Shown one piece after another: positions 20,296 through 41,027 of a stretch of 41,959 bases of DNA. The stretch is from the IMG/VR virus record IMGVR_UViG_2690316153_000014, positions 1 to 41,959 of that record; one strand, written 5' to 3'. The notes under the pieces were generated by a model that had not been told where the DNA came from, searched no databases, and worked only from the letters and a program-made list of their open reading frames with translations. This stretch comes from a virus (lineage: Duplodnaviria; Heunggongvirae; Uroviricota; Caudoviricetes). The number at the start of each line of letters is the position of its first letter. Position 1 is the first letter of the stretch. The translations under genes were made by a program, and so were the position numbers.

Positions 20296-20351
20296 TGATC
20301 TTACCCAGCAATAGTGGACACGCGGCTAAGTGAGTAAACTCTCAGTCAGAG

Positions 20352-20660
20352 GTGACTCACATGACAAAAACAGTATCAACCAGTAAAAAACCCCGTAAAC
20401 AGCATTCGCCTGAATTTCGCAGTGAAGCCCTGAAGCTTGCTGAACGCATCGGTGTTACTGCCGCAGCCCGTGAACTCAGCCTGTATGAATCACAGCTCTA
20501 CAACTGGCGCAGTAAACAGCAAAATCAGCAGACGTCTTCTGAACGTGAACTGGAGATGTCTACCGAGATTGCACGTCTCAAACGCCAGCTGGCAGAACGG
20601 GATGAAGAGCTGGCTATCCTCCAAAAGGCCGCGACATACTTCGCGAAGCGCCTGAAATGA
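20352..20660 (+). CDS. insE: IS3 OrfA (InsE-type HTH transposase subunit)
   Basis: 99-aa [34 protein letters not shown]... with HTH and leucine-zipper-like C-terminus. Confidence 0.9.
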
Positions 20661-21523
20661 AGTATGTCTTTATTGAAAAACATCAGGCTGAGTTCAGCAT
20701 CAAAGCAATGTGCCGCGTGCTCCGGGTGGCCCGCAGCGGCTGGTATACGTGGTGTCAGCGGCGGACAAGGATAAGCACGCGTCAGCAGTTCCGCCAACAC
20801 TGCGACAGCGTTGTCCTCGCGGCTTTTACCCGGTCAAAACAGCGTTACGGTGCCCCACGCCTGACGGATGAACTGCGTGCTCAGGGTTACCCCTTTAACG
20901 TAAAAACCGTGGCGGCAAGCCTGCGCCGTCAGGGACTGAGGGCAAAGGCCTCCCGGAAGTTCAGCCCGGTCAGCTACCGCGCACACGGCCTGCCTGTGTC
21001 AGAAAATCTGTTGGAGCAGGATTTTTACGCCAGTGGCCCGAACCAGAAGTGGGCAGGAGACATCACGTACTTACGTACAGATGAAGGCTGGCTGTATCTG
21101 GCAGTGGTCATTGACCTGTGGTCACGTGCCGTTATTGGCTGGTCAATGTCGCCACGCATGACGGCGCAACTGGCCTGCGATGCCCTGCAGATGGCGCTGT
21201 GGCGGCGTAAGAGGCCCCGGAACGTTATCGTTCACACGGACCGTGGAGGCCAGTACTGTTCAGCAGATTATCAGGCGCAACTGAAGCGGCATAATCTGCG
21301 TGGAAGTATGAGCGCAAAAGGTTGCTGCTACGATAATGCCTGCGTGGAAAGCTTCTTTCATTCGCTGAAAGTGGAATGTATCCATGGAGAACACTTTATC
21401 AGCCGGGAAATAATGCGGGCAACGGTGTTTAATTATATCGAATGTGATTACAATCGGTGGCGGCGGCACAGTTGGTGTGGCGGCCTCAGTCCGGAACAAT
21501 TTGAAAACAAGAACCTCGCTTAG
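20657..21523 (+). CDS. insF: IS3 OrfB (InsF-type DDE transposase catalytic subunit); start overlaps the orfA stop (ATGA)
   Basis: 288-aa ORF with an RNase-H-fold DDE integrase core; the overlap with orfA fits the usual IS3 -1 frameshift fusion arrangement. Confidence 0.9.
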
Positions 21524-21674
21524 GCCTGTGTCCATATTACGTGGGTAGGATCACGCAGGGGTCGGCCCATTTGAGCTTCAGATAGGAACGTTTGAATTCC
21601 TTTCACAAAATACATCACATACTGAACGTGAACATTCCCACTTTGATCTTAAGGCCAAAAAGTATGCAGGACTA

Positions 21675-23393
21675 ATGATTTTTAGGGATAGCTTGAGAGT
21701 ATTACCTTATGGTCGAGTAGATAATGATTTCTTCCAGATAGAAGAAAGACGTTCATGGAATGCTGGGCGATATTATTGGTCTAATAGAAGGATTTTTGGT
21801 TATATTGGAATTACTCAATCCAGTAATAAAGAGCTGAAAGATAAGTCGGGGAGAGAGGGATTCATAAGAAACCAGGCTGCAAGAGAACTGAAAACTATTA
21901 TATCTAATTTGTTAACTGAACTTGCTGATAGATTTTTTGGTTCACGTTCTGATGACCGTAAAGAGCTTTTAGAACAAGTTAAGCGTGAAAAAGAGTTAAG
22001 AAAATCTGCTCAACAACAAGCTCGAAAATCAACACAAAAAAGTTTTTCAGAAGCTTTGAAGAATCAGACACCAGTTCTTGATGCTTCCTTGGAGGCTGTT
22101 AAAAGGCTGAAAACTAAGCTTGATAAAACTGATGGTTCGTTAGATTTAAACTATCTTAAAATTATAGACAGTGATCTTACAAACTTAGATGCGTTGCGCA
22201 GTGAAATTAAAACGCCTATCAAACCTCCAAAACTTGGAATGTATGAAGAGAAATATAGAGACTACAGAGATAAATTTAATGAGTTCTCTGCGTATATTCT
22301 ACAAATGAAGTTAGCAATTAATAAACTTGATTCTGAATTAAATAAACTTGAGCCTTCATTGTCAGCGAAAAATCACCTTGAAAAAAATCAAGGTATTATT
22401 AATTCTAAACTAACTAAGTTTAATAACACGATAGAGGAGAAGATACATTCTCTTTTAAAAAAATGGGCCGATGAAATAAAGGTTGATCGAAGTGATTATT
22501 ATGCTAAAACTATATCAGTTGTTGATTCAATAGATAATGATTCACAAATTGAAAATGTGTTTAATTTGCTCGATAGTTTATATGTTGAGTCAGTTGATAC
22601 CCTAACTTTCAAATATCAATCAATAATAAAAGGTCTCGATAGATTATTTGAAGGTATAAACTTAGATTCAGCATTCTCATTATCTGAAGAAGAACGCTCA
22701 TATTTTGAAGAAAAAGCTAAAAGTTTAAACGCGCTTGCACAGTTAGGTATTAGTGTTGAGATAATATCTCATGAACTTGAAGAAATGGATTCTATGGTAA
22801 CCAGAGGACTAAACTCTCTTCCTACTTCTGTAAAAGAACACCCTGGTTTTTCATTGGCGTTAAATGCTCACAGATCGCTTACTCAACAAATACGTTTCTT
22901 ATCACCTTTGAAAATATCAGGTTATCAATCCAGGCAGAGAATAACTGGAAAAAATATCATGGATTATGTCCTGAAGTTCTTTGGGGAGCGTTTCGAACGG
23001 CAACGAATAACTATTGAATTTAGTGAAGAGTTTAAGCAAATCGCAATAACAGATATACCATCAAGGATCTATCCTGTTTTTACTAATATTATCAACAATG
23101 CAATGTATTGGGTCAGTCTGTCAAATAATAGGCTCATAAAGATTGGTTTTGTGAATTCTTTGGTTATCATAGCAAATTCTGGTCCGGCAATTGATACCGA
23201 TGATATCCCGCGACTATTTGAACTATTTTATAGCAAAAGAGCAAATGGACATGGGGTAGGTCTGTATCTATGTCGAGAAAACCTTGCTGTTGCACATCAT
23301 AAAATATGGTATTCAGAACCTGATGAAGGCGATAACTATTTAATAAAAGATGGCGCTAATTTTGTGATCCAGTTCAATGGAGTGGAGTTCTAA
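21675..23393 (+). CDS. cytoplasmic histidine-kinase-like protein (coiled-coil N-terminal region, H-box-like ISHELEEM, C-terminal HATPase_c/GHKL domain); possibly 5'-truncated by IS3
   Basis: C-terminus carries N box (VFTNIINNAMYWV), G1 (IIANSGPAIDTDD), F (LFELFYSKR) and G2 (GHGVGLYLC) motifs. No transmembrane segment. The frame stays open upstream of the ATG back into the IS3 right end (stop at 21546-21548). AT-rich codon usage. Confidence 0.6.
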   Translation: MIFRDSLRVLPYGRVDNDFFQIEERRSWNAGRYYWSNRRIFGYIGITQSSNKELKDKSGREGFIRNQAARELKTIISNLLTELADRFFGSRSDDRKELLEQVKREKELRKSAQQQARKSTQKSFSEALKNQTPVLDASLEAVKRLKTKLDKTDGSLDLNYLKIIDSDLTNLDALRSEIKTPIKPPKLGMYEEKYRDYRDKFNEFSAYILQMKLAINKLDSELNKLEPSLSAKNHLEKNQGIINSKLTKFNNTIEEKIHSLLKKWADEIKVDRSDYYAKTISVVDSIDNDSQIENVFNLLDSLYVESVDTLTFKYQSIIKGLDRLFEGINLDSAFSLSEEERSYFEEKAKSLNALAQLGISVEIISHELEEMDSMVTRGLNSLPTSVKEHPGFSLALNAHRSLTQQIRFLSPLKISGYQSRQRITGKNIMDYVLKFFGERFERQRITIEFSEEFKQIAITDIPSRIYPVFTNIINNAMYWVSLSNNRLIKIGFVNSLVIIANSGPAIDTDDIPRLFELFYSKRANGHGVGLYLCRENLAVAHHKIWYSEPDEGDNYLIKDGANFVIQFNGVEF

Positions 23394-23394
23394 T

Positions 23395-25143
23395 ATGACA
23401 GTGGCAAATTATAATTCTCTTGTCCAGAAAACTTTCTGCGAAAATGCAATTCGTTCCGTTGTCATGATTGATGACGATTTTCTGACGTATTCTGAATCAA
23501 TCAGGGCGTTGAATAACGAAGTTGATTTAGACTACAACAAAATTGACTCATCTAAACGAGCCGCTACTCTTGAGAGCTTTTTTCAATCTAAAAATATGAT
23601 TTGTGATGTTGACAATGGTTCTGTTAATTTCGATGTGGATCGGATTAGAAAATCAGATCTTATTATTGTAGATTATCATCTTGATAATAATGCACCTGAT
23701 AAAACACTTAAACTATTACAAGATTTGAAAGACTCCGATCATTTAAATATGATTGTAATATATACTAGAGAGAATTTAGAAACGGTTTGGATGCAGATAT
23801 CATCGACTCTCAAAGGTGCTCTGGATATCAACAGCTTGATCATTGACTACGATAATGAAGATGTCCAAAGTTATTGGGAAGACGTTGTATTACCGAACTT
23901 AAATGATAATGGTAATAAAGCTCTCACAAGAGATGAAACAATAGCCTATATTAAAGACAGTAAGCCTTGTAGAAGAATTAAAAGATTAATACATGATGAT
24001 GCTGTGTTGGAGGATCAAAAGGATAAAAACTTCATTGCAAAAATGATTGCAGAATATGCTGTGTCTAGAAATGCAATTATTTCTAGCAACACATCTGGCA
24101 ATGTCATTCGGGGTGATGAAAGCGGAGTAAAATGGATTCAATGTGGTAATATCTTTGTCTCCCTATTTCATAAGGTTCAAGATGATCATGAAAACGATGG
24201 AGATAGGATTTGGCAAACTCTCAATGATTCTCTCATTGAATGGAAACCATCTTATTATCAGTTAATAAAATCTGAAATTCAGAATGCAATCGAAGCTGAG
24301 GCTTTATCTTTTGTAAATCATTTGGCTAACGATCATTACGGTCAAGCTGCGTGGTTAAATGAGATATTAAAATCAGACTCGCCTGATATTAGATGTAGAA
24401 ATATTGACTTTGTATTTGGTAATTTATCAGAAGAGCTTTATCAAAGACTTAAAAATAATAATACGCTGGATGAATTTATCAAAAGTGTTTTTGATAGCTA
24501 TTCAAATGAATACGCTAACAGCGGAGTTGCTGCATTGCTCCAATATTGCTCTTCAAAAATGGATCTGCCATCAAATAATGATACTTATCACGAAATGTAT
24601 CATGCTTTAAATATGAATTTGTCTTCAAAGAATTTTGAAGATGGTCATATTTCTACTGGCACTATTTTCTTTGATACAGAGTCGAACAAATGGTATTTAT
24701 GTGTATCTGCGGCATGTGATTTGGTTCCTACTCAGGGTAACGACCCTCACCATGTAAGATTAAGTCCGCACAGGCTCATTAAAGTTCTGGAGCTTTTTAA
24801 CGCCAGTCAGAGTAAAGCATTGCCATTTGCTGAACATTCGAAATATATATATGTAATGCATAAAAATCAAAGAAAATATCTCTCTATTTTCGAAGGGGAT
24901 AAAACGCTTCCTGTTGTTGATTATATGGTGGTGTTGAATCATGGAACAACAGTTGATGGCGAAGAAAAAAATATTATTTCTGCCGTGTTTTTAAGTAATA
25001 TGGATGGCAACGTGCAAAATGTTCCTGTCCGACTCAAACTTAAATCTCAACTGAGAACTGGTTATGCAGAAAGATATCAGGCTATAGCGTCTCAGTATAG
25101 CTCAAGGATTGGTGTGGATTATGTATCAATGATGCTACCATAA
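23395..25143 (+). CDS. response-regulator-like protein: N-terminal receiver (REC) domain plus a roughly 440-aa C-terminal domain of unknown function
   Basis: REC hallmarks: acidic cluster VVMIDDDF, candidate phospho-acceptor Asp in LIIVDYHLD, conserved Thr in MIVIYTRE. GGAG Shine-Dalgarno 7 nt upstream; the ATG lies 2 nt after the kinase stop (an alternative in-frame ATG is at 23377). I recognise no DNA-binding or enzymatic motif in the C-terminal domain. Confidence 0.6.
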   Translation: MTVANYNSLVQKTFCENAIRSVVMIDDDFLTYSESIRALNNEVDLDYNKIDSSKRAATLESFFQSKNMICDVDNGSVNFDVDRIRKSDLIIVDYHLDNNAPDKTLKLLQDLKDSDHLNMIVIYTRENLETVWMQISSTLKGALDINSLIIDYDNEDVQSYWEDVVLPNLNDNGNKALTRDETIAYIKDSKPCRRIKRLIHDDAVLEDQKDKNFIAKMIAEYAVSRNAIISSNTSGNVIRGDESGVKWIQCGNIFVSLFHKVQDDHENDGDRIWQTLNDSLIEWKPSYYQLIKSEIQNAIEAEALSFVNHLANDHYGQAAWLNEILKSDSPDIRCRNIDFVFGNLSEELYQRLKNNNTLDEFIKSVFDSYSNEYANSGVAALLQYCSSKMDLPSNNDTYHEMYHALNMNLSSKNFEDGHISTGTIFFDTESNKWYLCVSAACDLVPTQGNDPHHVRLSPHRLIKVLELFNASQSKALPFAEHSKYIYVMHKNQRKYLSIFEGDKTLPVVDYMVVLNHGTTVDGEEKNIISAVFLSNMDGNVQNVPVRLKLKSQLRTGYAERYQAIASQYSSRIGVDYVSMMLP

Positions 25144-25215
25144 TTATTATATTTTAGGCGTGGTGATTTTTTTTTCGCCATGCCTATTTTATATTTATCA
25201 TCACAATGATGTTGT

Positions 25216-25632
25216 TTATTTTTGTTTAAGTCTTCTAAGCTTCATGCATTCTAATGAGAATAATAATAGAGTTGTGCTGTATATAAAGCCAGAGTTAGTT
25301 AATAACTTTAAATTTAATGCTTCAGGATTTTCACTGAGAAAGTGAAAGGCATAAACTAAGTATACAGCTAAAGTAGCCGTTCCAATTGTTGGTCCAATAT
25401 CGCCTTGATCATGAGGTTCAAGGTTTACATTGAACTTGAAGATTAGCCATTCAAATCCCCAAGTAAAAAAAACAACTAATATCATGGCTGCGAATAATTT
25501 CGCGATGTTATCTGCTGATGGATTCATCAGAACAGATTGTTTCTGAAAAAATTCACAAAGTGAGAGTCCGAAAAAAATAAAAAAAAGTGGTCTGGAACTA
25601 AATTTTTCAAAAACTTTGAATAGGGTTTCCAT
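25216..25632 (-). CDS. small integral membrane protein (about 4 predicted TM helices), unknown function
   Basis: 138-aa ORF with four hydrophobic stretches; AT-rich; sits between the REC-protein gene and the integrase. Confidence 0.45.
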   Translation of the reverse strand: METLFKVFEKFSSRPLFFIFFGLSLCEFFQKQSVLMNPSADNIAKLFAAMILVVFFTWGFEWLIFKFNVNLEPHDQGDIGPTIGTATLAVYLVYAFHFLSENPEALNLKLLTNSGFIYSTTLLLFSLECMKLRRLKQK

Positions 25633-25670
25633 TTTCTTTACCTTCAGGATTATATTAGCTATTCTGATAC

Positions 25671-26900: not shown

Positions 26901-27065
26901 TTTGGGACCCTCGGTTTTTGGACCCTTCTTAGTGGGTCCCATTCAGGGTGCCATAACTCGTAGTTCTCAGCAATTCTCACTGGACGACAATAGACGTAAA
27001 AAAGCCCGCAGAGCTTGTGCTGTGTGGGCTTAGTAGACTTCATTGAACTTCAAACAACTAAAAAG

Positions 27066-27100
27066 TGGTGGAGCTGGCGGGAGTTGAACCCGTATCCGAA
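27066..27100 (-). repeat. attachment-site-like repeat resembling the 3' end of ssrA (tmRNA), not a complete RNA gene
   Basis: Reverse complement reads TTCGGATACGGGTTCAACTCCCGCCAGCTCCACCA (T-arm, acceptor 3' strand, CCA), close to the E. coli ssrA 3' end as I remember it. Upstream sequence has no tag-coding or 5' acceptor region. Lies 166 bp upstream of the P4-type integrase start. Confidence 0.6.
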
Positions 27101-27358
27101 AAATTCTTAACCAATTGAATATTAATGATTTTTCTAATTTAAAATACCTCACGTGCATTTTACGTGCATATTGTAGTACCTCTAACGTCCTGATTCTGTC
27201 CAACATTTTGAAGTGTTTAGGCGCCACTGGGGCGGTGATTAGCGCTGTTTTGTGCTGTTCATAGCACTTCAAGACTATTCAATTCAGAGCAATCGTTGAA
27301 GAATTACCCGTAAGGTAATATCATACTATTTAGGTAACTGCGGTTATCACCATCAAGG

Positions 27359-27394
27359 GCCACTGATGACGCTGTTATCATCAGTGGCTTTTTG
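27359..27394 (+). terminator. strong plus-strand intrinsic terminator (perfect 11-bp stem) upstream of the two-gene cassette
   Basis: GCCACTGATGA (27359-27369), 8-nt loop, TCATCAGTGGC (27378-27388), then TTTTT. No U-run on the opposite strand. Confidence 0.55.
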
Positions 27395-27435
27395 TACCTT
27401 CACTGCACAGCCAGTGAAGTGTTGAGGAGACTAGC

Positions 27436-27777
27436 ATGAGAACAGTAGCGAGAAGATCGATACAGACGATTGAGCGTCGGACTCAACTCGTCAGTTCTTT
27501 TGTTGACTCAAACACAGCAAACGAGTTCTTCGTGAGAAGACTGAGTGATCGTGTCTCCCCGGCACGTCAGCTGTTTATTGTGACATTGAACAATGAGGTT
27601 CGTGACGGTGACGTGATCCCGTTCGCTGAGATCGCCATGAACAAAGAAAAATTGCGCTATGTTGTGAAGCCAGCAGATCAGTATCCTCAGTATGTAAGCA
27701 GTAATCTGCTGAAGAAAATTGAAGCGGCAATTGCTCTATACATGCAGAAGAACTACAGGGAAATTAACTACCATTAA
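27436..27777 (+). CDS. hypothetical protein (113 aa), first gene of a two-gene cassette
   Basis: ORF preceded by GAGGAG Shine-Dalgarno (27424-27429); 11-bp gap to the next gene; I recognise no motif. Confidence 0.5.
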   Translation: MRTVARRSIQTIERRTQLVSSFVDSNTANEFFVRRLSDRVSPARQLFIVTLNNEVRDGDVIPFAEIAMNKEKLRYVVKPADQYPQYVSSNLLKKIEAAIALYMQKNYREINYH

Positions 27778-27788
27778 AAGGTTGCTGA

Positions 27789-28556
27789 ATGGCTCCTGCG
27801 TTAATACCTTCATATAACAAGGACTTGAACATTACGCCATTTGGCGAAAAACGTCTTATTGAGTCATTCTATTTTTTCACTGCCGAGGCTGGCTTACTGA
27901 GGGCTGATGAGTACATTGTCAGTTCTGGTGAGTTTCAGTACTACTTGGATGTGTATCAACTGGGATGTTCCACCGACGACTTTTTTTTAGACTATGGCAG
28001 TGACCTTCTTGATTCGAAGGTTCCAATGCAGGATCTGGTCAATACCCTCTTGGGTCTTGATATGGTAGACGATAACAAAACGATAAGAATAGGTCGTATA
28101 CAGTTCAACGACTTTAATTTTATCGAAGAGAACGGTCAGATGATGACCGGAAAGCAAGTGAAAAGCGCTGTTATCGCACAGGATTTCCAATCAGCAGGTT
28201 TGGCGCGTGAGATCTATAAAATGCTTGCGCGAAAGCATGAGTTTCTCATCTGCGATAACATTCAAAGTATTGCCGGTGGTGCTCTTTGGGCTAGTAGCAT
28301 CATTCGAATTGCCGAGGTACGGATCTACAATTCACGCACGAAGAAATTTATGGACATACTTGGTCCAGGTGCGCGTGGCGTTTCAGGTACTTTGCCATGG
28401 AGTGCGAATGATCTGTCTGTAGATGAGATTGTTCGCTGGGGTCGTGCGTATGATGATGAAAACTGTTGTCGTCACATTGTACATGTTATCTGTAAGGACC
28501 GACTCATTGACGATCAATTTCATGATTATGTTTCGATAGGTGGCGCGACAGAATAA
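27789..28556 (+). CDS. hypothetical protein (255 aa), second gene of the cassette
   Basis: Coding-like composition, tightly linked to the upstream ORF, followed by a terminator; no recognised domain. Confidence 0.5.
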   Translation: MAPALIPSYNKDLNITPFGEKRLIESFYFFTAEAGLLRADEYIVSSGEFQYYLDVYQLGCSTDDFFLDYGSDLLDSKVPMQDLVNTLLGLDMVDDNKTIRIGRIQFNDFNFIEENGQMMTGKQVKSAVIAQDFQSAGLAREIYKMLARKHEFLICDNIQSIAGGALWASSIIRIAEVRIYNSRTKKFMDILGPGARGVSGTLPWSANDLSVDEIVRWGRAYDDENCCRHIVHVICKDRLIDDQFHDYVSIGGATE

Positions 28557-28561
28557 CCATC

Positions 28562-28590
28562 AAAAAGACCCGGCATTTGCCGGGTTTTTT
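28562..28590. terminator. bidirectional intrinsic terminator between the cassette and the prophage integrase
   Basis: A-run, stem ACCCGGC/GCCGGGT (28568-28574 with 28579-28585), loop ATTT, T-run; works on both strands. Confidence 0.65.
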
Positions 28591-28597
28591 CTTCAAA

Positions 28598-29776
28598 TCA
28601 CTTCTTCATTCCAGATTCCATTGCGGTTTTCCCGTCGTATTCAGCCAGGTATTTACCGTAATTGCGGAACAGCATTTCCGGCCCCTTATGCCCCATCTGC
28701 CCGGCAAGCCAGAAAAGGTTTACACCCTGGCTAATGTGTCTGGTGGCGAATGTGTGGCGCGTCTGGTACGGGTTACGGTAGCGCACACCAGCTTTTTTCA
28801 GGGTCGGCACCCATGCTTTTTTACGGATAGCGTCGGCGTTCGTCCAGGGATCTCCCGTTTTCGGATCGCTGAATATGAACTCACTTTTCATAAAGGTGTA
28901 TTGCTTCTGCGCCTGCAGGGCCGCCAGCGCCTCACTGTTCAGCTCCACCTTACGGGTACCGGCTTTTGTCTTGGTGCCTTTAAGTACCCCTACGACACTG
29001 GCCGCCTGTATGTGCGCTGTATTACCTATAAAGTCGATATCGGTCCAACGTAATGCGCATAGCTCAGAGCTGCGTAGCCCTGTATTGAAGGCGAAGCGGA
29101 ACAGATTCTGCCATTCCTGATACTTGCAGTGCTGATATATGGCACTGGTTTCCGCAGGCGCAAACGGATCAACTTCGTAATCGTCGGCGTTCGGTTTACT
29201 GTCGACCACGTGATACCGGCTGGCGCTGACAAGAGTTACCGGGTTAATAGTCAACAGGCCATCAGTTACAGCCTCATCAATGGCGCTGCGCAGAAATGAC
29301 AGGTTATTCCTGATTGTTTTCAGCTTAGTTTTTCGGCTGGCTATCCAATTTTTTAGTACCGCAGGCGTCAATTCTGTTACATGTAGTTTATGTAGTTCTG
29401 ATAGTGCTGATAGACATTTTTCGTAACCGCCAATGGTTGACGGCGACAGATTGCGGTTCATGCAAATTTTCAGGTATTCATCAAGATAGGACTTAATATT
29501 TTTGGTTTTCTTTACTACACCGAATAACTCCAGTTTTTTGGAACTGGGGAAATATTTCGCATATTCAAACGTTCCGCTGGCGATCTGATTTTGTATCTCC
29601 CCTAGCAGGCGCTCAGCATATTTAATACCACGTGTATTTGCCTCAAGCCGAGACAGGGGCTCCCTGCAAAGAACCCCTTTATATGTGAAAGTGATAACTA
29701 GTGTTGAAGCAGTTTTATGCTTACGAATAGTTACTCCTCTTGGCAGAGATAATAATCCTTGTTCTTTCTTGCCCAT
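28598..29776 (-). CDS. lambdoid prophage tyrosine integrase
   Basis: 392-aa ORF with catalytic-domain residues (R in LRSSELCALRW, HTFATRH, terminal Tyr region); an excisionase-like ORF overlaps its start, as in lambda int-xis. Confidence 0.8.
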   Translation of the reverse strand: MGKKEQGLLSLPRGVTIRKHKTASTLVITFTYKGVLCREPLSRLEANTRGIKYAERLLGEIQNQIASGTFEYAKYFPSSKKLELFGVVKKTKNIKSYLDEYLKICMNRNLSPSTIGGYEKCLSALSELHKLHVTELTPAVLKNWIASRKTKLKTIRNNLSFLRSAIDEAVTDGLLTINPVTLVSASRYHVVDSKPNADDYEVDPFAPAETSAIYQHCKYQEWQNLFRFAFNTGLRSSELCALRWTDIDFIGNTAHIQAASVVGVLKGTKTKAGTRKVELNSEALAALQAQKQYTFMKSEFIFSDPKTGDPWTNADAIRKKAWVPTLKKAGVRYRNPYQTRHTFATRHISQGVNLFWLAGQMGHKGPEMLFRNYGKYLAEYDGKTAMESGMKK

Positions 29777-29940
29777 TTTGAAACCTCTATTAAGTCGACC
29801 CAGCGTTCTTTAACTCCGTCGACTTTTAATACATGAACCCCTTCTTTCCATATTCCTCTTTGTATCCGTTTGTTAACGGCATCAACCGTTTCTCCCGCGT
29901 CGCGGCAGTAGGTTGATATAGGCACGCAATCCAGCCCCAT
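29731..29940 (-). CDS. putative excisionase (Xis-like)
   Basis: 69-aa ORF overlapping the integrase start by 46 nt; small basic winged-helix-like composition; called from position only. Confidence 0.45.
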   Translation of the reverse strand: MGLDCVPISTYCRDAGETVDAVNKRIQRGIWKEGVHVLKVDGVKERWVDLIEVSKWARKNKDYYLCQEE

Positions 29941-30098
29941 ACATCACCTCACATAACACTCAGCCCACGGCAGTGGCACCACACGTCAAACATTCGCTTC
30001 ACAACTTCACGACAGTAGAAGCCGTCAACATCTCGCGTCAGGTCATAGCGATTGCCGTAACGCTGGTGGACCCATTGTTCAAATGCTTTATTCATTCT

Positions 30099-30377
30099 TT
30101 ACTTCCTTTTTATGGCTCGTAATTTTTTCAGGTGCTTTTCCTGCTCAGTGTCCGCGAGAATTTTGCGGTACTCCTGGTGGTCAATATGTTCGAACAGGCA
30201 GTTTAACTCACCAATGCGTACCCGCCCGGATCGTCCGTCCATCCGTCGAAAGAACACTGAGTGCTCAGTGATGCGAGTAATCACCACGGGGTATCCGGCT
30301 CTGTCCGTGTATATCTGACCGCGTTGAATCAAAGCGAACATGTGGTTATCCCCATCGACAAATTGAGAACACAACAA
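30099..30377 (-). CDS. hypothetical prophage early protein
   Basis: Minus-strand ORF in the early-left gene string; no recognised motif; start uncertain. Confidence 0.35.
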   Translation of the reverse strand: MLCSQFVDGDNHMFALIQRGQIYTDRAGYPVVITRITEHSVFFRRMDGRSGRVRIGELNCLFEHIDHQEYRKILADTEQEKHLKKLRAIKRK

Positions 30378-30464
30378 ACGCTACTGCGAATACCACCCCC
30401 AGAGTTACGATTGCATCAGGCCAGCTCATTGATTCACCTCCTGCGGCGTCCTGGTATTCGATTT

Positions 30465-31033
30465 TCATTCCGGATGCTCCTGAGCCACATTGAAATCGCC
30501 ATGATCACGACAAGGCATCACAACAAATTCAGGATTGCCATACATTGAGTTGATGATGGAATCAAACTGAATTCTGACCGCTTGCCCGTCACCGGAGGAA
30601 CGTAACTGGACGGGAATAAATTTACGCTCACGACCAAACATCTTCTCTGGATAACTCAGGTAACCCGCCTGGATCACCGGGTGTGTACAGAGGTCAAATT
30701 TTTTCGGAATGATGCGTTCCAAATCCGGAAAACAACCGTCCACCAATTTAATGCCGGTAATGGACAGCCGGCGCTGAAACTGGTCGCGATGAACAGGATC
30801 GGCTCTTTACTAAAAATCAGCTCTGTCGTTTCGGCTTTGGCCGGGACGCCACCTTCGAACTGGACAATGATGTTTTTCTTCGTCCGGATGCCGTGAGTCA
30901 TGCGCAGTGCTACGAAACCATTGGTTGCCTCAATATGTTTTGGCGTGATGTGAAGACCGTTCAGGTAATAACGAACGTCGTTTTTAGCAGCGCACACCAG
31001 AGCGGCGCGAATAAGTTTTGACTGGATGATCAT
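30465..31033 (-). pseudogene. beta-sliding-clamp (DnaN)-like gene covering clamp domains II-III, split by a frameshift (track ORFs 30674..31033 and 30465..30746)
   Basis: Upstream ORF contains DVRYYLNG and ATNG (DnaN has HQDVRYYLNG and ATDGHRLAV). Downstream ORF, in another frame and open upstream to 30806, contains KLVDGCFPDLERIIPK and EFVVMPCRD (DnaN has KLVDGRFPDYRRVLPK and C-terminal AYVVMPMRL). The two frames overlap by about 70 nt. Confidence 0.5.
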
Positions 31034-31779
31034 GCTTTATCCTCCCATCCGATTACCTGAAAAAGCCCCATCTTCGGGTGATACCAGCGTGTGCCGCGTG
31101 GTTCAGCCTCTGACATCATTTGGTGGAACGCCGCCATAAATGTCTCAAGCTCGACGACAGCCCTGCGAGACAACAGACCGTCCGGAGTCATAAATTCGTG
31201 CGTGTCGGTAGGGATGTGGTAGGCGTTGACCAGATTCCGACACTTGGCGTCACTCATTCCGCTTTTGGCTACCACCTGGCGGTAACCGACATATCCGGTG
31301 CGCATTGTGCCGCGTTTGATGTTCTCCACAGCTTTGGTGACCGTTTCGATCTTCTCTTCAACATGACTCAGGCGCTTCTGCTGGCGAACGGCATCGGCGG
31401 CCATTGCAGCGATCATCTCCATTTCCGTCAGCGGCGCGTGAGTTCGGAAATAGCTGTTAACCAGTTCGCGCTGAACCTGCCATGCAAGAGCATCGTTAAA
31501 AGGCTTCGTCAACATCAGGTAACCAGACTCGAAAAGAATGATCCCTTTGGCAGTTCGCGCGGCAAAGGCATCAGAAAGTGACTCCGTACGTATTACGTCC
31601 GCAGTCATTTCAAGAAAATCCACCCCTTCGATAAAGTGAGAACGGTTGCGGTTAAACGCAGCACGGGCGGTACCTTCCGGGCGCTGGTGGACGTCATCAA
31701 TTATTGCAAATGTCACAACACGCTGACCGCGATATTCGATTACCGGAAACTGTTTGTTGTTGATGGTTACAATATTCAT
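31030..31779 (-). CDS. phage antirepressor-like protein (ORF6N/AntA-type N-terminal domain)
   Basis: ORF starting MNIVTINNKQFPVIEYRGQRVVTFAIIDDVHQRPEGTARAAFNRNRSHFIEGVDF... with GGAG Shine-Dalgarno; domain call from motif resemblance only. Confidence 0.4.
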   Translation of the reverse strand: MNIVTINNKQFPVIEYRGQRVVTFAIIDDVHQRPEGTARAAFNRNRSHFIEGVDFLEMTADVIRTESLSDAFAARTAKGIILFESGYLMLTKPFNDALAWQVQRELVNSYFRTHAPLTEMEMIAAMAADAVRQQKRLSHVEEKIETVTKAVENIKRGTMRTGYVGYRQVVAKSGMSDAKCRNLVNAYHIPTDTHEFMTPDGLLSRRAVVELETFMAAFHQMMSEAEPRGTRWYHPKMGLFQVIGWEDKA

Positions 31780-31822
31780 TTTTATCTCCAGACAGCCCGG
31801 CGTGTAATACCGGGCATATGTA

Positions 31823-32650
31823 TTACTTAACCTGAATAAATGGTGTGTTGGCACCGCTGGTCATGTATTGCGGCAGTGTACCGTTCCACTTGTTGATGGC
31901 TTCCAGCTCCATAACACCGGGGTTCTGGCGCAGAGCTTCACCGCGTAAACGAATAGCATCGGCTTCGGCCTGGGCTTTTGTGCGAATCGCATCTGCCTGT
32001 CCGGCAGCTTCCGCGCGCAACATGTTGGCTTCCGCTTCGCGCTGTTTTACTTCCTGCTCGCGTTGCAGGGTTTTCTGGTTCGCCGTGACTTTGGCATTAA
32101 TGCTGTCGATAACAGTAGGTGGGTACTCCGGCTTACCCACATATGAGAGGCTCATTACCTGAATACCGATGGGCGTCATTTCTTCCTGAATGTCTTTAAG
32201 AGCTGCATCCAGCAGCTCAGACTTGCCGCCGTCGATAAATTTGTCGGTGGTCATTTTGCTGGCCAGTCGGTTGAGTGCGTCGGCTATCTTCTGGCGCAGG
32301 TCGGTGTCGGTAATGTCGTCCACGCCTTTGCGGTAGGTCTGAAAGACTGTGGTAACTTTGGATGGATCAACTTTGTAGGCCACGCCGATGTGATAGCCGA
32401 TGGTTGTACCGTCACTCATCTGGAAACTGAATGGATCATCGTAGGTCTTCATCTGCTTAAAGGTCGGGAAGATGTAAACCTCAGTGTTCCATCCCGTCCA
32501 GTAGCGCCCAACACCGACCACTTCACCGACGCCTTTATCGTCGCCCAGTTTGTTTACTTTGATGCCCACATTACCAGGCTCAACGCGATCGCAACCGACA
32601 AGGCCAATGGTCGGCAGAACAAGGGCTAAAGCAAAAAGTAATTTTTTCAT
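31823..32650 (-). CDS. SPFH/band-7 family lipoprotein
   Basis: Lipoprotein signal peptide with lipobox (LVGC), then a prohibitin-like region and an Ala/Glu/Gln-rich coiled-coil tail. Confidence 0.55.
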   Translation of the reverse strand: MKKLLFALALVLPTIGLVGCDRVEPGNVGIKVNKLGDDKGVGEVVGVGRYWTGWNTEVYIFPTFKQMKTYDDPFSFQMSDGTTIGYHIGVAYKVDPSKVTTVFQTYRKGVDDITDTDLRQKIADALNRLASKMTTDKFIDGGKSELLDAALKDIQEEMTPIGIQVMSLSYVGKPEYPPTVIDSINAKVTANQKTLQREQEVKQREAEANMLRAEAAGQADAIRTKAQAEADAIRLRGEALRQNPGVMELEAINKWNGTLPQYMTSGANTPFIQVK

Positions 32651-32835
32651 CTTTTATCCTTAGAAAAAGAAAGACCCTTATAAATGGCATAAATGCAGGG
32701 CGGGGTCAGACACGCCAGAGCAAAGCCAGAAATCACTGCTACCGTATCCTTCATTGATATGAGGGCCGGAACGATTAATCCGTAAATACATGTGATAATT
32801 GCCAGTGATATAACTATTCTGAAATAAATGTTCAT
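32647..32835 (-). CDS. small two-helix membrane protein, translationally coupled to the SPFH gene
   Basis: 62-aa hydrophobic ORF whose stop overlaps the SPFH start (ATGA). Confidence 0.4.
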   Translation of the reverse strand: MNIYFRIVISLAIITCIYGLIVPALISMKDTVAVISGFALACLTPPCIYAIYKGLSFSKDKR

Positions 32836-32895
32836 GGTCCTCCTGATGTATTCGGCTTGCCTTATTTAATTGCGTCATGGTTAATTTCGTTTACG

Positions 32896-33288
32896 TCAGA
32901 ATGGTTTTGTTGCCATCAGTTCGTAATATCCGGCGCTCCATGTGTCATATTTTCTGAACCATTTTTCTGTATACTGTTTCCTGGCGATGAGTCTGCGCAG
33001 TCGTCTGATTGTTCGCTGGTGTGCGCGGGTATACTCTGTGGTTGATTCTCCACGTTTCCATATCTCATTCCTGTTGAAGATAAAACGCTTGTCAGGATAG
33101 CGTTGTCGGAATCCTGAACGTTCAAAAGCGCGGGTGGTCATAAAGAATGCCAGGTAACGAATTGCCGTTTTTCGGGTGAGGCATTTTTTTGTTCTTCCGT
33201 GGCGTGTTACAAAAAATAACGGGCCGACGGGTGTATCATGTTTCTGTAATGCCTGGTCAATGGTGCTGGCGGTGCGGTTGTCGATCAT
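32896..33288 (-). CDS. hypothetical basic protein (prophage early region)
   Basis: 130-aa Arg/Lys-rich ORF in the minus-strand gene string; function unknown. Confidence 0.35.
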   Translation of the reverse strand: MIDNRTASTIDQALQKHDTPVGPLFFVTRHGRTKKCLTRKTAIRYLAFFMTTRAFERSGFRQRYPDKRFIFNRNEIWKRGESTTEYTRAHQRTIRRLRRLIARKQYTEKWFRKYDTWSAGYYELMATKPF

Positions 33289-33503
33289 TTCTTTATTTCT
33301 CCCGAATAACGTTTATGACTCATTACTTCCCAGTTCCGGCCGTCGTCTTTCGATAACAGCCGCCAGCGACGGTTAACCTTCAGACTGAGATATCCGGTGC
33401 GCTGTATCCGATGCGGAAATATCCGTCGGCATCGGTACAACAACAGGACCTGCAATGCCTGCCGGTGGATCCGCTCAGGAATGCGTGTTGCTGTTAATGC
33501 CAC
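33285..33503 (-). CDS. hypothetical protein
   Basis: 72-aa ORF with 4-nt overlap to the downstream gene; weak support. Confidence 0.25.
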   Translation of the reverse strand: MALTATRIPERIHRQALQVLLLYRCRRIFPHRIQRTGYLSLKVNRRWRLLSKDDGRNWEVMSHKRYSGEIKK

Positions 33504-33690
33504 CGGTTTCCTCCTGAGCAGGTGCTGTTATCTGATACCCCGCTCTTTCTGCCAGCCGTATGAATGTATCCATGCTGGCAATCAGCTCGCCATCGCGGAC
33601 TTTGCAGACACCTGTGACTTGGCCATTTTCAATTGTCATAACGATCTGCACTTTTTCGTGCACAACAGATACAGGGGATAAATTAGCCAT
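33475..33690 (-). CDS. hypothetical protein
   Basis: 71-aa ORF contiguous with neighbouring minus-strand genes. Confidence 0.3.
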   Translation of the reverse strand: MANLSPVSVVHEKVQIVMTIENGQVTGVCKVRDGELIASMDTFIRLAERAGYQITAPAQEETGGINSNTHS

Positions 33691-34049
33691 CAGTTAATTC
33701 CTCCGCTGATATATTTTTCTTTCGCGTAATCAATAATCTCTTGAAAAAGGTTGTCTATAATTAACTTTCCGGTTTCAGTCAGGTATTCAGTATGTTGATT
33801 AATCCCGATAGCATTCTGGTATGCAGTGTGGATTTCGGTTTCACCCTCCACCCGGCCCAATTCACCACGGGTAATACCTTCGAAGCGTAACAGCAACTGG
33901 TTTATAAACTGTTCAGTTATTTCTATGGTCGTAATGTTCCCATCAGGAAGGTCAACAATAAGCAGATTACCACCTGTTTTACGTTTTATTCGATGGAGTG
34001 CCGCAACAGCTATACGGCGACGATATGTATTAATGGGTTCATGTGTCAT
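33690..34049 (-). CDS. hypothetical protein
   Basis: 119-aa ORF, same orientation, coding-like composition. Confidence 0.4.
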   Translation of the reverse strand: MTHEPINTYRRRIAVAALHRIKRKTGGNLLIVDLPDGNITTIEITEQFINQLLLRFEGITRGELGRVEGETEIHTAYQNAIGINQHTEYLTETGKLIIDNLFQEIIDYAKEKYISGGIN

Positions 34050-34233
34050 TTGTTATTTCCCGTATGCTTTCCTGAGAAACAGTATTGCAACTGACCAGTA
34101 TCCTGCATTAGCCATTAATAATGCGGTTTTATAAGCACTTCTGTTTTTCATGCATCACCACCATTTTCAGGTTGTGGAAATTCCCGACCAGAGACCGTTA
34201 TGTTTTTATGGGTGATTGTTTATTGAGTTTTCT

Positions 34234-34425
34234 TTATTCGTTGCGCAGTGTGTCGATATACGCGTAAGCCATTTCACAGGTTTTATTCATGGAGCGAATG
34301 AGGCAACATAAATAATCGTCTGTCTCTCCTGAGTCGGGCGAATTCTTAAATATAAATTCAAGCATTGATGTATTCTCTTTTATTTGTGCTGCCACTTCCT
34401 CAAGAATATTTAATGGAGTTTTCAT
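34234..34425 (-). CDS. hypothetical small protein
   Basis: 63-aa ORF with 4-nt overlap to the upstream gene. Confidence 0.3.
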   Translation of the reverse strand: MKTPLNILEEVAAQIKENTSMLEFIFKNSPDSGETDDYLCCLIRSMNKTCEMAYAYIDTLRNE

Positions 34426-34646
34426 GTTCTTTGCTCCTTAAATGCATCGCATGCGCTTCTGGCGTATTGTTGTGCCAGTAAAAAGATATCATCCGAAAGT
34501 TCATCACATTCTTCATCACCGGAAGCCGAAATGATTAACCCCGCTTCAAGCAGTACGGCAATGTGATGAAAAGTTGTCTCCGGTTCGTTGGTAAGGCCTT
34601 TGAACATTTTCATCTTATGCTTCCTCCTGATTTTGTTTATAAGCAT
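34422..34646 (-). CDS. hypothetical small protein
   Basis: 74-aa ORF overlapping the neighbours in operon fashion. Confidence 0.3.
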   Translation of the reverse strand: MLINKIRRKHKMKMFKGLTNEPETTFHHIAVLLEAGLIISASGDEECDELSDDIFLLAQQYARSACDAFKEQRT

Positions 34647-35034
34647 CAGTCAATAACAACATTGGATCACAGCCAAGAACATTAGCCAGAGGGATAAGCA
34701 TGCTGATGGTTGGTTCGTACTCTCCGCTCTCCCACTGGATGATAATTTCTTCATCGAGATCGAGCAGCCTAGCGAGTTCGGCGGTTGTTAAGCCGCAGGT
34801 TTCGCGTTGGGTGCGAATCCGATTCTGGGAATTAATAGCTAAATTTTGTTTGCATAAACGTGACGCGGTGAGGCTATATTTTTGAGTTACAGCCAGGATG
34901 GAGCTGGCAAGTTCAATTAACTCAGGGTTATTGCTGCTATACAGTAGTGCACCAGTCCCTACTAAGAGCTGAATATTCTCAAGAGCATCGTGCTGATTTG
35001 TTGGTAATCCCATATACGATGACATTTTTCTCAT
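34615..35034 (-). CDS. XRE-type HTH protein (C-terminal helix-turn-helix), first gene of the leftward early operon
   Basis: C-terminal segment LTTAELARLLDLDEEIIIQWESGEYEPTISMLIPLANVLG resembles an XRE/Cro-type HTH; gene starts just downstream of the putative left operator region. Confidence 0.45.
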   Translation of the reverse strand: MRKMSSYMGLPTNQHDALENIQLLVGTGALLYSSNNPELIELASSILAVTQKYSLTASRLCKQNLAINSQNRIRTQRETCGLTTAELARLLDLDEEIIIQWESGEYEPTISMLIPLANVLGCDPMLLLTDAYKQNQEEA

Positions 35035-35122
35035 CCTCTATAATTGCTTTGGTGAGTTCGATACCTATGTCAAGATAATAGGTTTACCGATTTCACCTGT
35101 CAATCGGTTTATCGATTTTTTC

Positions 35123-35150
35123 CCAAAAAAAAGCCCACTTAAGAGTGGGC
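35123..35150 (-). terminator. intrinsic terminator of the repressor gene
   Basis: On the minus strand, stem GCCCACT/AGTGGGC with a 4-nt loop followed by U8, beginning 19 nt after the repressor stop. Confidence 0.7.
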
Positions 35151-35168
35151 GGGTTAAATGATTTTTGC

Positions 35169-35861
35169 TTATGCAAAACGGTGTAGTGTCATAGGCCAAC
35201 TGACAATTACTTTTCCGTCAATGTGAAGTTGTTCGAAGTCTTCCGGTTCGATAGCCCAATCCTTGTAAGCTGGGTTGTCAGATATCACCGTTAGAGTATC
35301 TTTGATTTTTTGAAGTCTTTTGATGTGCGATGTTCCAGAGTATGTAAAGGCGTATATACCATCACCATTAAATGTGCGAACTGATACATCTACAAATACC
35401 AAGTCTTCAGGGTCTATTGTGCCTTTCATACTGTCGCCGTGGGCGTTTATTGCTTTGATTGCTGATGCTGGTCTGCCGCCAAAAACTCTTGATGCGTATC
35501 CTGGTTCTATCGCTATAGATCTGACAATATCAGGAAAATCAGAGTTATAACTACCAGGTCCGCAACTATATCTGATGTCTAAAACATCCACGACATACGA
35601 ATCAGTAACCCAATCTTCAGAAATGTTACGTATTTGGTGTGAGTCTGCAGAGGTCACGATTTCCATTGGGCCAACACCCGATGCGAGCCATTCCGGGTTA
35701 ACGCCCAAAACTTTTGCTATTTCGACTGTTTTTCTGGAACCGTTGGCTTTGTTAAGTAGTTGATTAACACTGGACTGAGCCATACCCACTTCTTTGGCCA
35801 GCCTACCTTGCGTAAATTTTGCGTTGCGCATAGCTAAATCAAGTCGTTCTGAAAATGTCAT
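35169..35861 (-). CDS. CI-like prophage repressor with N-terminal HTH and C-terminal LexA/S24 autopeptidase domain
   Basis: HTH region QGRLAKEVGMAQSSVNQLL and C-terminal S24 features (GDSM serine motif, downstream Lys); divergent from a Cro-like gene. Confidence 0.8.
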   Translation of the reverse strand: MTFSERLDLAMRNAKFTQGRLAKEVGMAQSSVNQLLNKANGSRKTVEIAKVLGVNPEWLASGVGPMEIVTSADSHQIRNISEDWVTDSYVVDVLDIRYSCGPGSYNSDFPDIVRSIAIEPGYASRVFGGRPASAIKAINAHGDSMKGTIDPEDLVFVDVSVRTFNGDGIYAFTYSGTSHIKRLQKIKDTLTVISDNPAYKDWAIEPEDFEQLHIDGKVIVSWPMTLHRFA

Positions 35862-35894
35862 TGCGATTTTCCTCCCCTCTCTATCTTGGCTAGT

Positions 35895-35912
35895 TTATCG
35901 GCTTTCCGATAA
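35895..35912. promoter_or_regulatory. candidate operator palindrome in the repressor/cro divergent promoter region
   Basis: TTATCGG-CTTT-CCGATAA: perfect 7-bp inverted arms. Related half-sites (ACCGAT...ATCGGT, TATCGAT) occur at 35085-35116 in the leftward promoter region. Confidence 0.45.
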
Positions 35913-35980
35913 ATATTCTATGTTTAACGTTGAATATCGCTTTTCCTGTTGTTATTATGCGTTCAATAGGAGATGCGATT

Positions 35981-36268
35981 ATGAAACATAAAGCCATAGA
36001 GAAAGCTATTGAGATTCTTGGAAGTCAGCAAGCCTTAGCCAAGCGATGCGGAAAGGCCCAGTCAACAGTCTGCGATTGGTTGAACTGCAAGAACAAGATT
36101 TCACCAGAATTTGTGCCGTTATTGGTTGCAGCTGTCGACGGAAAGATCCAAGCGTATGAATTTCGGCCAGACCTACCAGAGCTTTTTCCACATCCAAGCT
36201 TAGCGCGCACGGGGGAGGTGAAGGGCTTGTATGTCCCAGAATTACGTTCAGACAGAGATGCCATCTAG
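35981..36268 (+). CDS. Cro-like HTH regulator
   Basis: 95-aa ORF from ATG 35981 with AGGAG Shine-Dalgarno; HTH-like segment QQALAKRCGKAQSTVCDWLN; divergent from the repressor. Confidence 0.6.
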   Translation: MKHKAIEKAIEILGSQQALAKRCGKAQSTVCDWLNCKNKISPEFVPLLVAAVDGKIQAYEFRPDLPELFPHPSLARTGEVKGLYVPELRSDRDAI

Positions 36269-36539
36269 GTACTGCCAGGCAGACGAAGAGTGGATTCAGC
36301 AGCAGTTACAGGGGCTGCCTCCGTCACTGAGACGGAAGGTTGCCCTGAAATATGCGGAGGTATACGAAATCACTTTTGACGCTGAGCCTGTTTCATTCCG
36401 CAAGGAGAACAGAGCAAGGCACGAAGCAAACACAAGGCTCCGCCTGTTTGTAAGAAATCAGGGCAGAGCTTTACAGGGGTATACAGCCGAACCTCCCCTG
36501 GCTGGATCGCAATCGCGCTCCTCACTGTTTCGGGTTTAA
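36231..36539 (+). CDS. hypothetical early protein (CII-position gene)
   Basis: 102-aa ORF overlapping the cro-like gene end; function unassigned. Confidence 0.35.
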   Translation: MSQNYVQTEMPSRYCQADEEWIQQQLQGLPPSLRRKVALKYAEVYEITFDAEPVSFRKENRARHEANTRLRLFVRNQGRALQGYTAEPPLAGSQSRSSLFRV

Positions 36540-36952
36540 AGGTACCCGAACAGAAGCAGGCTTAAAGGTGCCTGTTCAGGTTGGCAACCAACTGACCCAA
36601 CTCCTCATGTGTACTAGGGAAGTAGTACGTTTTTATGGGGAAGAGGGTAAGGGGGGTAAGGGGGGATTGGGTGTTGGGGCAGGAATAGGGTCTTTTCCAA
36701 CAGGAGAGATCCATTGGTTAAGTAGATCACTGTCTTAAGGGCGCAATTTAAAAAAACGCCCGTATCAGCAAGGTAGTACAAAGCGCTCAGGCGCTGAGAA
36801 ACGAAAAGGGTTCTTCCTGGAAGAGTGATTTTTCAGAGGAGCTGAATCAGAAGGGAGGCTGGCAGCCTTTGGGGAGGCCACCAGCCATGTGAGGGGGAAT
36901 CCATGAAAACCACATCACAAAATTATTATCTCATCAGCACGGGAGCTGCACA

Positions 36953-38611: not shown

Positions 38612-38612
38612 G

Positions 38613-39581
38613 ATGAAAACAGCAGATGCAGCGAAAGGCCGCTGGCCTGAAATATTAGAGCACTTCGGTCTGCCGCCGATAACCGGAAAAAATCACTTCA
38701 AGGGTGAATGCCCGGTATGCGGTGCACGTGGCAAGTTCCGAATTGACGACCGCGACGGTGCAGGAACGTGGATCTGTGTATGTGGTAGTGGCGATGGTAT
38801 GAAACTTGTCACCCTGACACAGGCGAAGCCATTTAACGAGATTTGTACCGAAATAGACCGCCTGATCGGTAATGATTACCAACGGGTTAAAATCCCGGTA
38901 ACCAGCAGCGCCACCAGCTTACGCAAACGGGTATTGAGCAAGTTTTCAAAACTGGAGGCACTGCGTGGTACATCCGGCGCAGCGTATCTTAATTCTCGTG
39001 GAATATTCAGTCTTCCTGCTGAGGCGATCCGGTTCAATGCCAGGCAGAGACACAACGGGAGTGTGTTCCAGTCTCTTTATTCACTTGCTACGGACGATAA
39101 AGGGGAGTTGTGCTATCTGCACCAGACTCTGCTTGATGGTGATAAAAAAGCAGATATCGGTAGCAGTGCAAAGCGCCTCAAATCCCTGCAGGAAGATAAC
39201 TATTTGGATCACGCTCGTTCTGTAGCTATCCGCATGTTTCCTGTCGCCAGCACTCTGGGTATCGCCGAAGGCATCGAAACAGCGCTGTCAGCGCACCAGA
39301 TTTATAACGTGAACACCTGGGCAACCATTAACAGCGGCTTTATGAAAAAGTTTCGCGTACCAGCTGGTGTTCTGCACCTGATTATTTTTGCCGACCGTGA
39401 CGAGAACAGCGCCACCGGGCTGGCTGCGGCTTGCGAATGTGCTCATGCCAATCTGATGGCAAAGAATGACCTGCAGCGCGTGAGCGTGTACTGGCCGGAT
39501 CACGATGATTTCAACAATATGCTCATGAACGGTGATCAGGTTCGAGAGCTGGTTTTCCATAAGAAAAAGGCGGTTGCGTAA
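38613..39581 (+). CDS. primase-type protein (zinc ribbon plus Toprim-like region)
   Basis: CPVCGARGKF...WICVCGSGDGM zinc-binding motif at the N-terminus and an acidic DRDE segment downstream; start is 2 nt after the helicase stop. Confidence 0.65.
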   Translation: MKTADAAKGRWPEILEHFGLPPITGKNHFKGECPVCGARGKFRIDDRDGAGTWICVCGSGDGMKLVTLTQAKPFNEICTEIDRLIGNDYQRVKIPVTSSATSLRKRVLSKFSKLEALRGTSGAAYLNSRGIFSLPAEAIRFNARQRHNGSVFQSLYSLATDDKGELCYLHQTLLDGDKKADIGSSAKRLKSLQEDNYLDHARSVAIRMFPVASTLGIAEGIETALSAHQIYNVNTWATINSGFMKKFRVPAGVLHLIIFADRDENSATGLAAACECAHANLMAKNDLQRVSVYWPDHDDFNNMLMNGDQVRELVFHKKKAVA

Positions 39582-40830: not shown

Positions 40831-41027
40831 CGCGGTCCGCAAAAAGTATGTCAGTATGTTAAGAGTGGTTACTACGCCACACAGCTTAAACCAGCCGCAA
40901 GCGGGTTTTTTTATGGCTGAAATCGGTCCAGTACAGTAAACGCGCTGGCGGCGGTGAATACCGGTCTTTCAGCTTGCTGGCTTTTTCGACAAGAGTTATT
41001 GGTGTGTCACGTTAACCGGAAAAAGAC

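Follow-up and report, generated by a model that had tools for sequence, protein, structure and literature searches.

A leftover ssrA 3' end at the junction of a lambdoid prophage and a truncated P4-type island

The 41,959-nt stretch of DNA analyzed here (the window) carries two mobile elements that meet at a short copy of the 3' end of ssrA, the tmRNA gene (Table 1). On one side lies a P4-type island with its integrase, its cargo genes and an IS3 element. On the other side begins a lambdoid prophage, whose arm-type integrase is located 1.5 kb from the ssrA-end repeat and is followed by lambdoid early genes up to the end of the window. The first-pass annotation had described an attachment repeat between two integrases, and the family assignments bear this out with a P4-type enzyme on one flank and a lambdoid enzyme on the other, both on the minus strand. 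The P4-type integrase shares 48% identity with IntA of Escherichia coli K-12 (E 1e-138), scores 440.7 bits on NCBIfam NF007246 (cutoff 434) and contains the domains Arm-DNA-bind_3, Phage_int_M and Phage_integrase. It begins 124-166 nt after the CCA of the repeat and is co-oriented with the ssrA 3' end. Open reading frames of the junction and the island cargo were scanned against Pfam, PADLOC and NCBIfam, and the pair between the prophage integrase and the attachment site also against PHROGs.

Table 1. Features at the ssrA-end junction and in the two adjoining elements (window coordinates)
Feature	Position	Strand	Basis
IS3, truncating the island, removing its distal end and joining an unrelated chromosomal region	20296..21553	+	
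Other island cargo: 138-aa ORF and gene pair with HEF_HK/HATPase_c and Response_reg_2	21554..25670	.	Pfam
P4-type (CP4-57 IntA-like) integrase; likely true start ATG 26900, 409 aa	25671..26942	-	
Island-borne trailer, terminator-like hairpin and T-run at its end, like both ends of Salmonella IsrM	26998..27065	-	
Displaced copy of ssrA 328-363 (T-arm, acceptor 3' strand, CCA)	27066..27101	-	ssrA alignment
Exact identity block with intact ssrA, 27 nt, CGGGTTCAACTCCCGCCAGCTCCACCA	27066..27092	-	ssrA alignment
T-loop TTCAACT enclosed by inverted CGGG/CCCG, putative 7-bp overlap region of the phage integrase	27082..27088	-	sequence reading
Two mismatches to ssrA, TA for CG, phage-derived	27093..27094	-	alignment, other phage copies
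Int-proximal 14.9 kb of lambdoid prophage, running past the window end	27066..41959	.	
Non-coding phage arm of attR (one attP arm), 334 nt	27102..27435	-	99.97% identical to E110019 prophage end
Tandem pair ATGCACGT-AAA-ATGCACGT-G, candidate arm-type integrase site	27150..27169	-	repeated in other phage arm
ORF pair (113 and 255 aa) that separates phage int from att and is convergent with int	27436..28556	+	PHROG 2594, PHROG 3307
Prophage tyrosine integrase with N-terminal arm-binding domain	28598..29776	-	Arm-DNA-bind_2 4e-21, Phage_integrase 2e-19

The annotated ssrA gene of the nearest complete E. coli genome (L002:15917-16279) served as reference. Minus-strand positions 27101-27066 (TTTCGGATACGGGTTCAACTCCCGCCAGCTCCACCA, 36 nt) align with 34/36 identity to the final 36 nt of E. 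coli ssrA (tmRNA gene positions 328-363). Both mismatches fall on gene positions 335-336 (window 27094-27093), where the copy reads TA instead of CG, and the final 27 nt (27092-27066) are an exact match to intact ssrA. Proper alignment thus makes the similarity clear and upholds the original description of the segment as the T-arm and acceptor end of tmRNA with a few mismatches. Its length had to be revised. What had been quoted as a 35-nt read is a string of only 32 nt (GGATACGGGTTCAACTCCCGCCAGCTCCACCA, minus strand 27097-27066); the 35-nt span itself fits, as the added TTC at 27100-27098 agrees with ssrA, and position 27101 agrees as well, giving the true match of 36 nt. The copy includes T357 of ssrA, at 27072. 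The 26-mer GGGTTC...CCACCA occurs a single time in the window, with up to 3 mismatches permitted, and in 0 of 100 dinucleotide shuffles at the same tolerance.

Searches for RNA genes gave a consistent picture. ARAGORN reported 0 tRNA and 0 tmRNA genes in the window, and Rfam in gathering mode returned no tmRNA match at the gathering score. In permissive mode the tmRNA model (RF00023) reached 18.6 bits against a cutoff of 47, with a convincing alignment of the 3' end only. A complete structured RNA gene revealed by covariance search had been named as grounds against the ssrA-scar reading, and none was found at the site. The claim that nothing upstream resembles the rest of ssrA also holds, since the alignment drops to random level upstream of 27101. 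Folded alone, the segment forms the T-arm hairpin with a stability no better than that of shuffled sequences (z = -0.24).

The locus was then compared with 5426 complete E. coli genomes. The whole window is contained in none of them, and its parts are found separately, the phage and the left 20 kb in E110019, the junction in PV16-126. A 261-nt junction probe (26940-27200) is covered by at least 80% in 89 of the 5426 genomes, and many more match it only up to 27101, with ssrA annotated beneath the match. Three states of occupancy can be told apart. The island-only state is represented by the O114:H49 genome 90-9280, where smpB, intact ssrA, the same integrase, the cargo, IS3 and a truncated ygaQ follow each other in that order, with 99.84% identity to window positions 20296-27101. 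Here the ssrA gene ends in CCA followed by ctttttagttgtttgaag, exactly as the window continues from 27065 down; the joint reads ...CGGACGCGGGTTCAACTCCCGCCAGCTCCACCA directly followed by CTTTTTAGTTGTTTGAAG..., its right side being the same as the window below 27066. This genome therefore supplies the comparison with an unoccupied, phage-free site that had been suggested earlier: its flanks are precisely joined, with nothing between ssrA and the sequence that the window has from 27065 down.

The phage-only state is found in the aEPEC strain E110019, whose prophage is 99.9% identical to the window over 96% of 27066-41959 (14.9 kb). The two prophages share this nucleotide identity over the int/att end, the TA-bearing attR arm, the arm motif and the ssrA target, and differ in that the E110019 attR abuts native chromosome instead of an island and that its phage carries an extra IS3 family insertion. 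The same phage arm and copy end in ...TTTTTCGGATACGGGTTCAACTCCCGCCAGCTCCACCA, after which the native flank ATCATGATTGG begins; this flank (atcatgattgg) also follows the 14-nt psaA scar of K-12. At the other end, intact ssrA of E110019 continues into the other phage arm, CTTTAAGAAGGACTAC... The tandem state is seen in the O103:H2 genome PV16-126, whose junction is 100% identical to that of the window and whose intact ssrA lies 52.8 kb off, at the other end of a lambdoid prophage with espK, espN and nleL. In strain 'numer 3' a different lambdoid phage occupies the same place beside the same island, and the identity block begins at the same base.

Further lysogens are documented by sequence records. 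PhiR12_1 and PhiR12_5 are 99.4% identical to the window prophage and have the same attL and attR on ssrA, with K-12 MG1655 and E. coli C as stated hosts; in E. coli C the same attR lies beside that strain's own related island. Across PhiR12_1/2/4/5 the likeness to the window prophage covers the int/att end (99.4% identity), the TA-bearing attR arm, the arm motif and the ssrA target. A search for a paper describing the PhiR12 phages found none, and the assignment of the lysogens to K-12 and E. coli C follows the host fields of the records. With the hosts taken from these fields, the records suggest an active phage family and the formation of tandem arrays by such integration.

Taken together, the segment at 27101-27066 is a leftover ssrA 3' end, which serves as attR of the prophage and bounds the P4-type island on its left, ssrA-proximal side; it is a site of DNA recombination and not an RNA gene. 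The joint is exact, with the island ending at 27065 and the int-proximal end of the prophage at 27066, and since the base after 27066 is the first island base, the two elements share the junction. Two proposals of the first-pass annotation are thereby substantiated. The displaced 3' end is the scar of site-specific integration into ssrA, given the base-exact joints in all three occupancy states, and the occupancy is tandem, with a P4-type island on one side, a lambdoid prophage on the other and a common junction, given that the match to the window starts at 27066 in phage-only genomes and extends up to 27101 in island-only ones. An isolated 3' end with two mismatches could also be a decayed pseudogene, left when ssrA was duplicated or deleted by non-specific rearrangement with no integrase involved. 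This origin has next to no probability: the base-exact boundaries recur in independent genomes with different neighbors, the upstream sequence is a conserved phage arm and not degraded ssrA, the mismatches are constant in every phage-arm copy and integrases lie on both flanks. In practice, the three-state comparison refutes it.

The two mismatches are informative about the position of the crossover. E110019, the tandem genome and the PhiR12 records share the TA at 27094-27093, and ssrA keeps CG in all lysogens. Because TA is constant in the phage arm copies, the mismatches derive from the phage attP and not from decay of the scar; the few mismatches noticed at the outset are real, as two bases differ, and they were brought in by the attP arm. 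The contrast between CG in ssrA and TA in attR further places the crossover 3' of position 336. In E110019 both flanks diverge right after CCA, so the exchange occurred at or before CCA. From these two limits we infer a crossover inside the 27-nt block 27066-27092, the right limit being set only by the E110019 comparison, as phage arm and island alike continue with CTTTT after CCA and the identity therefore runs over 32 nt in the lineage of the window. Within the block, TTCAACT (27088-27082) forms a 7-nt spacer between inverted CGGG and CCCG, the geometry of a tyrosine-recombinase core site. Judged from this arrangement of the letters, the phage crossover probably lies at this T-loop sequence, which would represent the overlap region. 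The T-loop is a recognized sublocation class for the crossovers of tRNA and tmRNA integrases, according to the work of Williams (2002/2003) as presented in PMC3603311 and PMC3146451.

Both phage arms carry a further element. A 20-nt pair, ATGCACGTAAAATGCACGTG, occupies 27169-27150 and precedes the CCA end by 84-103 nt. Its second copy is found in the ssrA-proximal arm of PV16-126 and of the PhiR12_1 record, 93-112 nt beyond the CCA of ssrA. There is one copy per phage arm and no other in the window. These pairs are good candidates for the arm-type sites of the arm-binding integrase. A 'terminator' call at 27166-27150 was rejected, as it corresponds to this direct-repeat arm motif, which contains the palindrome CACGTG. 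A terminator-like hairpin is found 128-145 nt after CCA in the ssrA-proximal phage arm, and another, with a T-run, lies in the island at 27016-27002, 50-64 nt past CCA. With hairpins past CCA in both the phage arm and the island, each element supplies a trailer and a terminator to the ssrA gene that it abuts.

The island itself is a truncated, immobile remnant of a CP4-57-like family. A distal ssrA-end repeat was found neither in the window (up to 3 mismatches permitted) nor in the island-only locus (L007), because IS3 has truncated the island. Its cargo pair at 21675-25143 (plus strand) encodes two large proteins, one with HEF_HK and HATPase_c and the other with Response_reg_2, and resembles a two-component module; no defense-system match was obtained for it in PADLOC. 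The left side of IS3 (19810-20295) bears an N-terminally truncated gene for a PapD-type fimbrial chaperone of a ydeQRS/usher cluster, preceded by ydeP, yddA/B and pqqL, and the right side (21554 onward) is the cargo of the ssrA island. The two loci joined by IS3 are about 1.2 Mb apart in K-12, and the 3-bp flanks of the element are unlike (GTC vs CGC). This joint is spanned by 0 of the 5426 complete E. coli genomes. It stems either from inversion (IS3 x IS3) or from a chimeric assembly: since the left 20 kb come from a region some 1.2 Mb off in K-12 and are joined through IS3, the source genome is rearranged or mis-assembled.

In all likelihood, the copy is a hybrid attachment site that originated when the phage integrated into ssrA beside the older, IS3-truncated P4-type island. 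The opposite order would have the phage in place first and the P4-type island using the displaced copy, the phage attR, as its attB. A tandem array results either way, and the copy keeps the 14-nt CGCCAGCTCCACCA used by P4-type elements (table in PMC10107115), so that it is in principle a usable target. This order is nevertheless very unlikely, as the island is an IS3-truncated remnant without a distal repeat and the identical truncated island lies directly after intact ssrA, at 99.8-100% identity, in many phage-free genomes. An island that is truncated, lacks a second repeat and has the same form in phage-free genomes could not integrate in this form, from which we infer that the phage came second. 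The phage moreover is 99.9% identical between island-free and island-bearing hosts, which points to its recent spread.

With the phage as the later arrival, the following course of events can be proposed. The ancestor would have carried ssrA followed directly by the P4-type, CP4-57-like island, already truncated by IS3 and without distal repeat. A lambdoid phage would then have arrived with an attP that mimics the final ~36 nt of ssrA, exact over 27 bases after two mismatches, and would have recombined with the intact gene inside these 27 bases. The likeliest place is the T-loop TTCAACT, which inverted CGGG and CCCG enclose. Its arm-type tyrosine integrase would drive this reaction, acting on the core sites and on the ATGCACGT pairs of both arms. 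Integration would rebuild a wild-type ssrA followed by a trailer and terminator supplied by the phage, and the old ssrA 3' end, with the island still attached, would be displaced by about 50 kb. The 5' side of the copy at 27101-27066, with TA at 27094-27093, would accordingly come from the phage, and its 3' side from the former ssrA. Because the window ends inside the prophage, the partner copy in an intact ssrA is seen only in proxy genomes, PV16-126 and E110019; their prophages measure 47-53 kb, and the intact gene is therefore expected about 33-38 kb beyond 41959. As the left part of the window is rearranged at IS3, the ssrA end of the source genome could also differ.

A partial Rfam match to IsrM (RF02763) extends over 27075-26998 on the minus strand, with 53 bits, E 1e-13 and alignment to model positions 1-20 and 274-329. 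IsrM is a Salmonella sRNA located between STM2762 and STM2763, ~66 kb past smpB, and, like the window segment, sits tens of kb downstream of smpB/ssrA in island DNA. The trailer and terminator behind the att copy align to both ends of its model; the 253-nt body (model positions 21-273) is missing, and with 53 bits against a gathering score of 376 the segment falls outside the family. In this alignment the 5' end of IsrM coincides with the ssrA-end copy, which suggests that IsrM originated at a similar att junction.

It is conceivable that the copy and the conserved trailer and terminator are expressed as a functional sRNA, either a tRNA-like 3' fragment or a short IsrM-like RNA. The match to both ends of a model built on a real sRNA and the terminator-like hairpin speak for such a product. 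Against it stand the IsrM score far below the gathering score with 253 nt of the model absent, the fold that is no more stable than shuffled sequence, and the minus strand upstream of the copy, in which no promoter-like site was found. In addition, the trailer (27065-26998) comes right after intact ssrA in island-only genomes and is fully accounted for as the island-supplied ssrA 3' trailer and terminator. A functional sRNA is therefore extremely improbable. That transcription from the phage arm turns the ssrA end with its trailer and terminator into a short IsrM-like or tRNA-fragment-like RNA, which would give the junction a regulatory output in lysogens only, is likewise highly improbable.

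The integration scar is ordinary and already known biology, and the phage and the island remnant are both present in public genomes. Integration into ssrA that leaves a 3'-end direct repeat and builds tandem arrays has been described (PMC3146451, PMC3603311, PMC11915505, PMC10107115), and the tmRNA locus, taken by many element types in E. coli and Salmonella, ranks there among the hotspots with the most diverse occupants (PMC3603311, PMC3146451). The window agrees with the tandem islands and prophages known at the tmRNA gene, where successive elements are split by ssrA 3'-end direct repeats and the newest lies beside the intact gene; such arrays are the subject of 'Traffic at the tmRNA gene' (Williams, 2003), as referred to in PMC3603311 and PMC3146451. 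The ssrA-GIs of Dehalococcoides are tandem elements as well and use serine recombinases (PMC3146451), whereas the window combines two unrelated tyrosine integrases, an arm-type lambdoid and a P4-type enzyme, and otherwise differs in nothing essential. The mechanism itself adds nothing new. For annotation purposes, the copy fixes the place, between 27065 and 27066, where the P4-type island remnant has its right boundary and the prophage its int-proximal end.

Among known systems, the island compares closely with CP4-57, a cryptic prophage of E. coli K-12, which has its attL in ssrA and its attR in the pseudo-ssrA psaA. Both elements have a P4-type int right downstream of the ssrA CCA in the same orientation, and the window integrase resembles IntA at 48% identity and passes NF007246. 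The distal scar psaA of CP4-57 has 14 nt, CCGCCAGC-CCACCA, and is devoid of T357, which is why excision of CP4-57 inactivates tmRNA (PMC10107115). In contrast, the window copy has 36 nt, includes T357 and received its 5' part from another element, the phage; the island's own distal scar was lost to IS3. Since the copy keeps T357, excision of the phage should regenerate normal ssrA. The predicted repaired attB would consist of wild-type ssrA followed by CTTTTTAGTTG and, unlike the excision of CP4-57 in K-12, phage excision is predicted to leave a normal tmRNA gene. As the copy shows, the prophage family brings along a 3' end and a terminator to replace those of ssrA.

Some minor observations concern the neighborhood of ssrA. 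A second ssrA-end scar, CACTGCCAGCCCACCA, is present in K-12 MG1655 (L005, 30467-30482) near pinH/ypjB, some 5.5 kb past psaA, the annotated CP4-57 scar, and is preceded by ACCAATTCAG as at psaA. By its sequence, the scar suggests that K-12 carries one more tandem remnant at ssrA, namely the ypjA-pinH segment. The motif CTTT(T) directly follows the ssrA CCA both in the phage arm (L002:16280-16284) and in the unrelated P4-type island of the window (27061-27065); the first bases at this place are AAATT in CP4-57 and AATAT in the E. coli C island. The common start of phage arm and island may be a coincidence, or the 3' trailer of ssrA may be under a constraint shared by both.

Other observations relate to the prophage genes. 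The two ORFs between its integrase and the attachment site (27436-27777 and 27789-28556, both on the plus strand) gave no match in Pfam, PADLOC or NCBIfam, and their PHROGs, 2594 and 3307, are of unknown function. The related ssrA phage in strain 'numer 3' (L004) lacks both, and in PhiR12_5 and E110019 they are variably disrupted. By their typical position they are candidates for cargo genes of the 'moron' or lysogenic-conversion kind. A small ORF at the usual xis position (29731-29940) had no family match in Pfam. In the early-right region of the prophage, the sRNA STnc100 is represented by a full-length Rfam match at 41380-41552 on the plus strand (108 bits vs 47).
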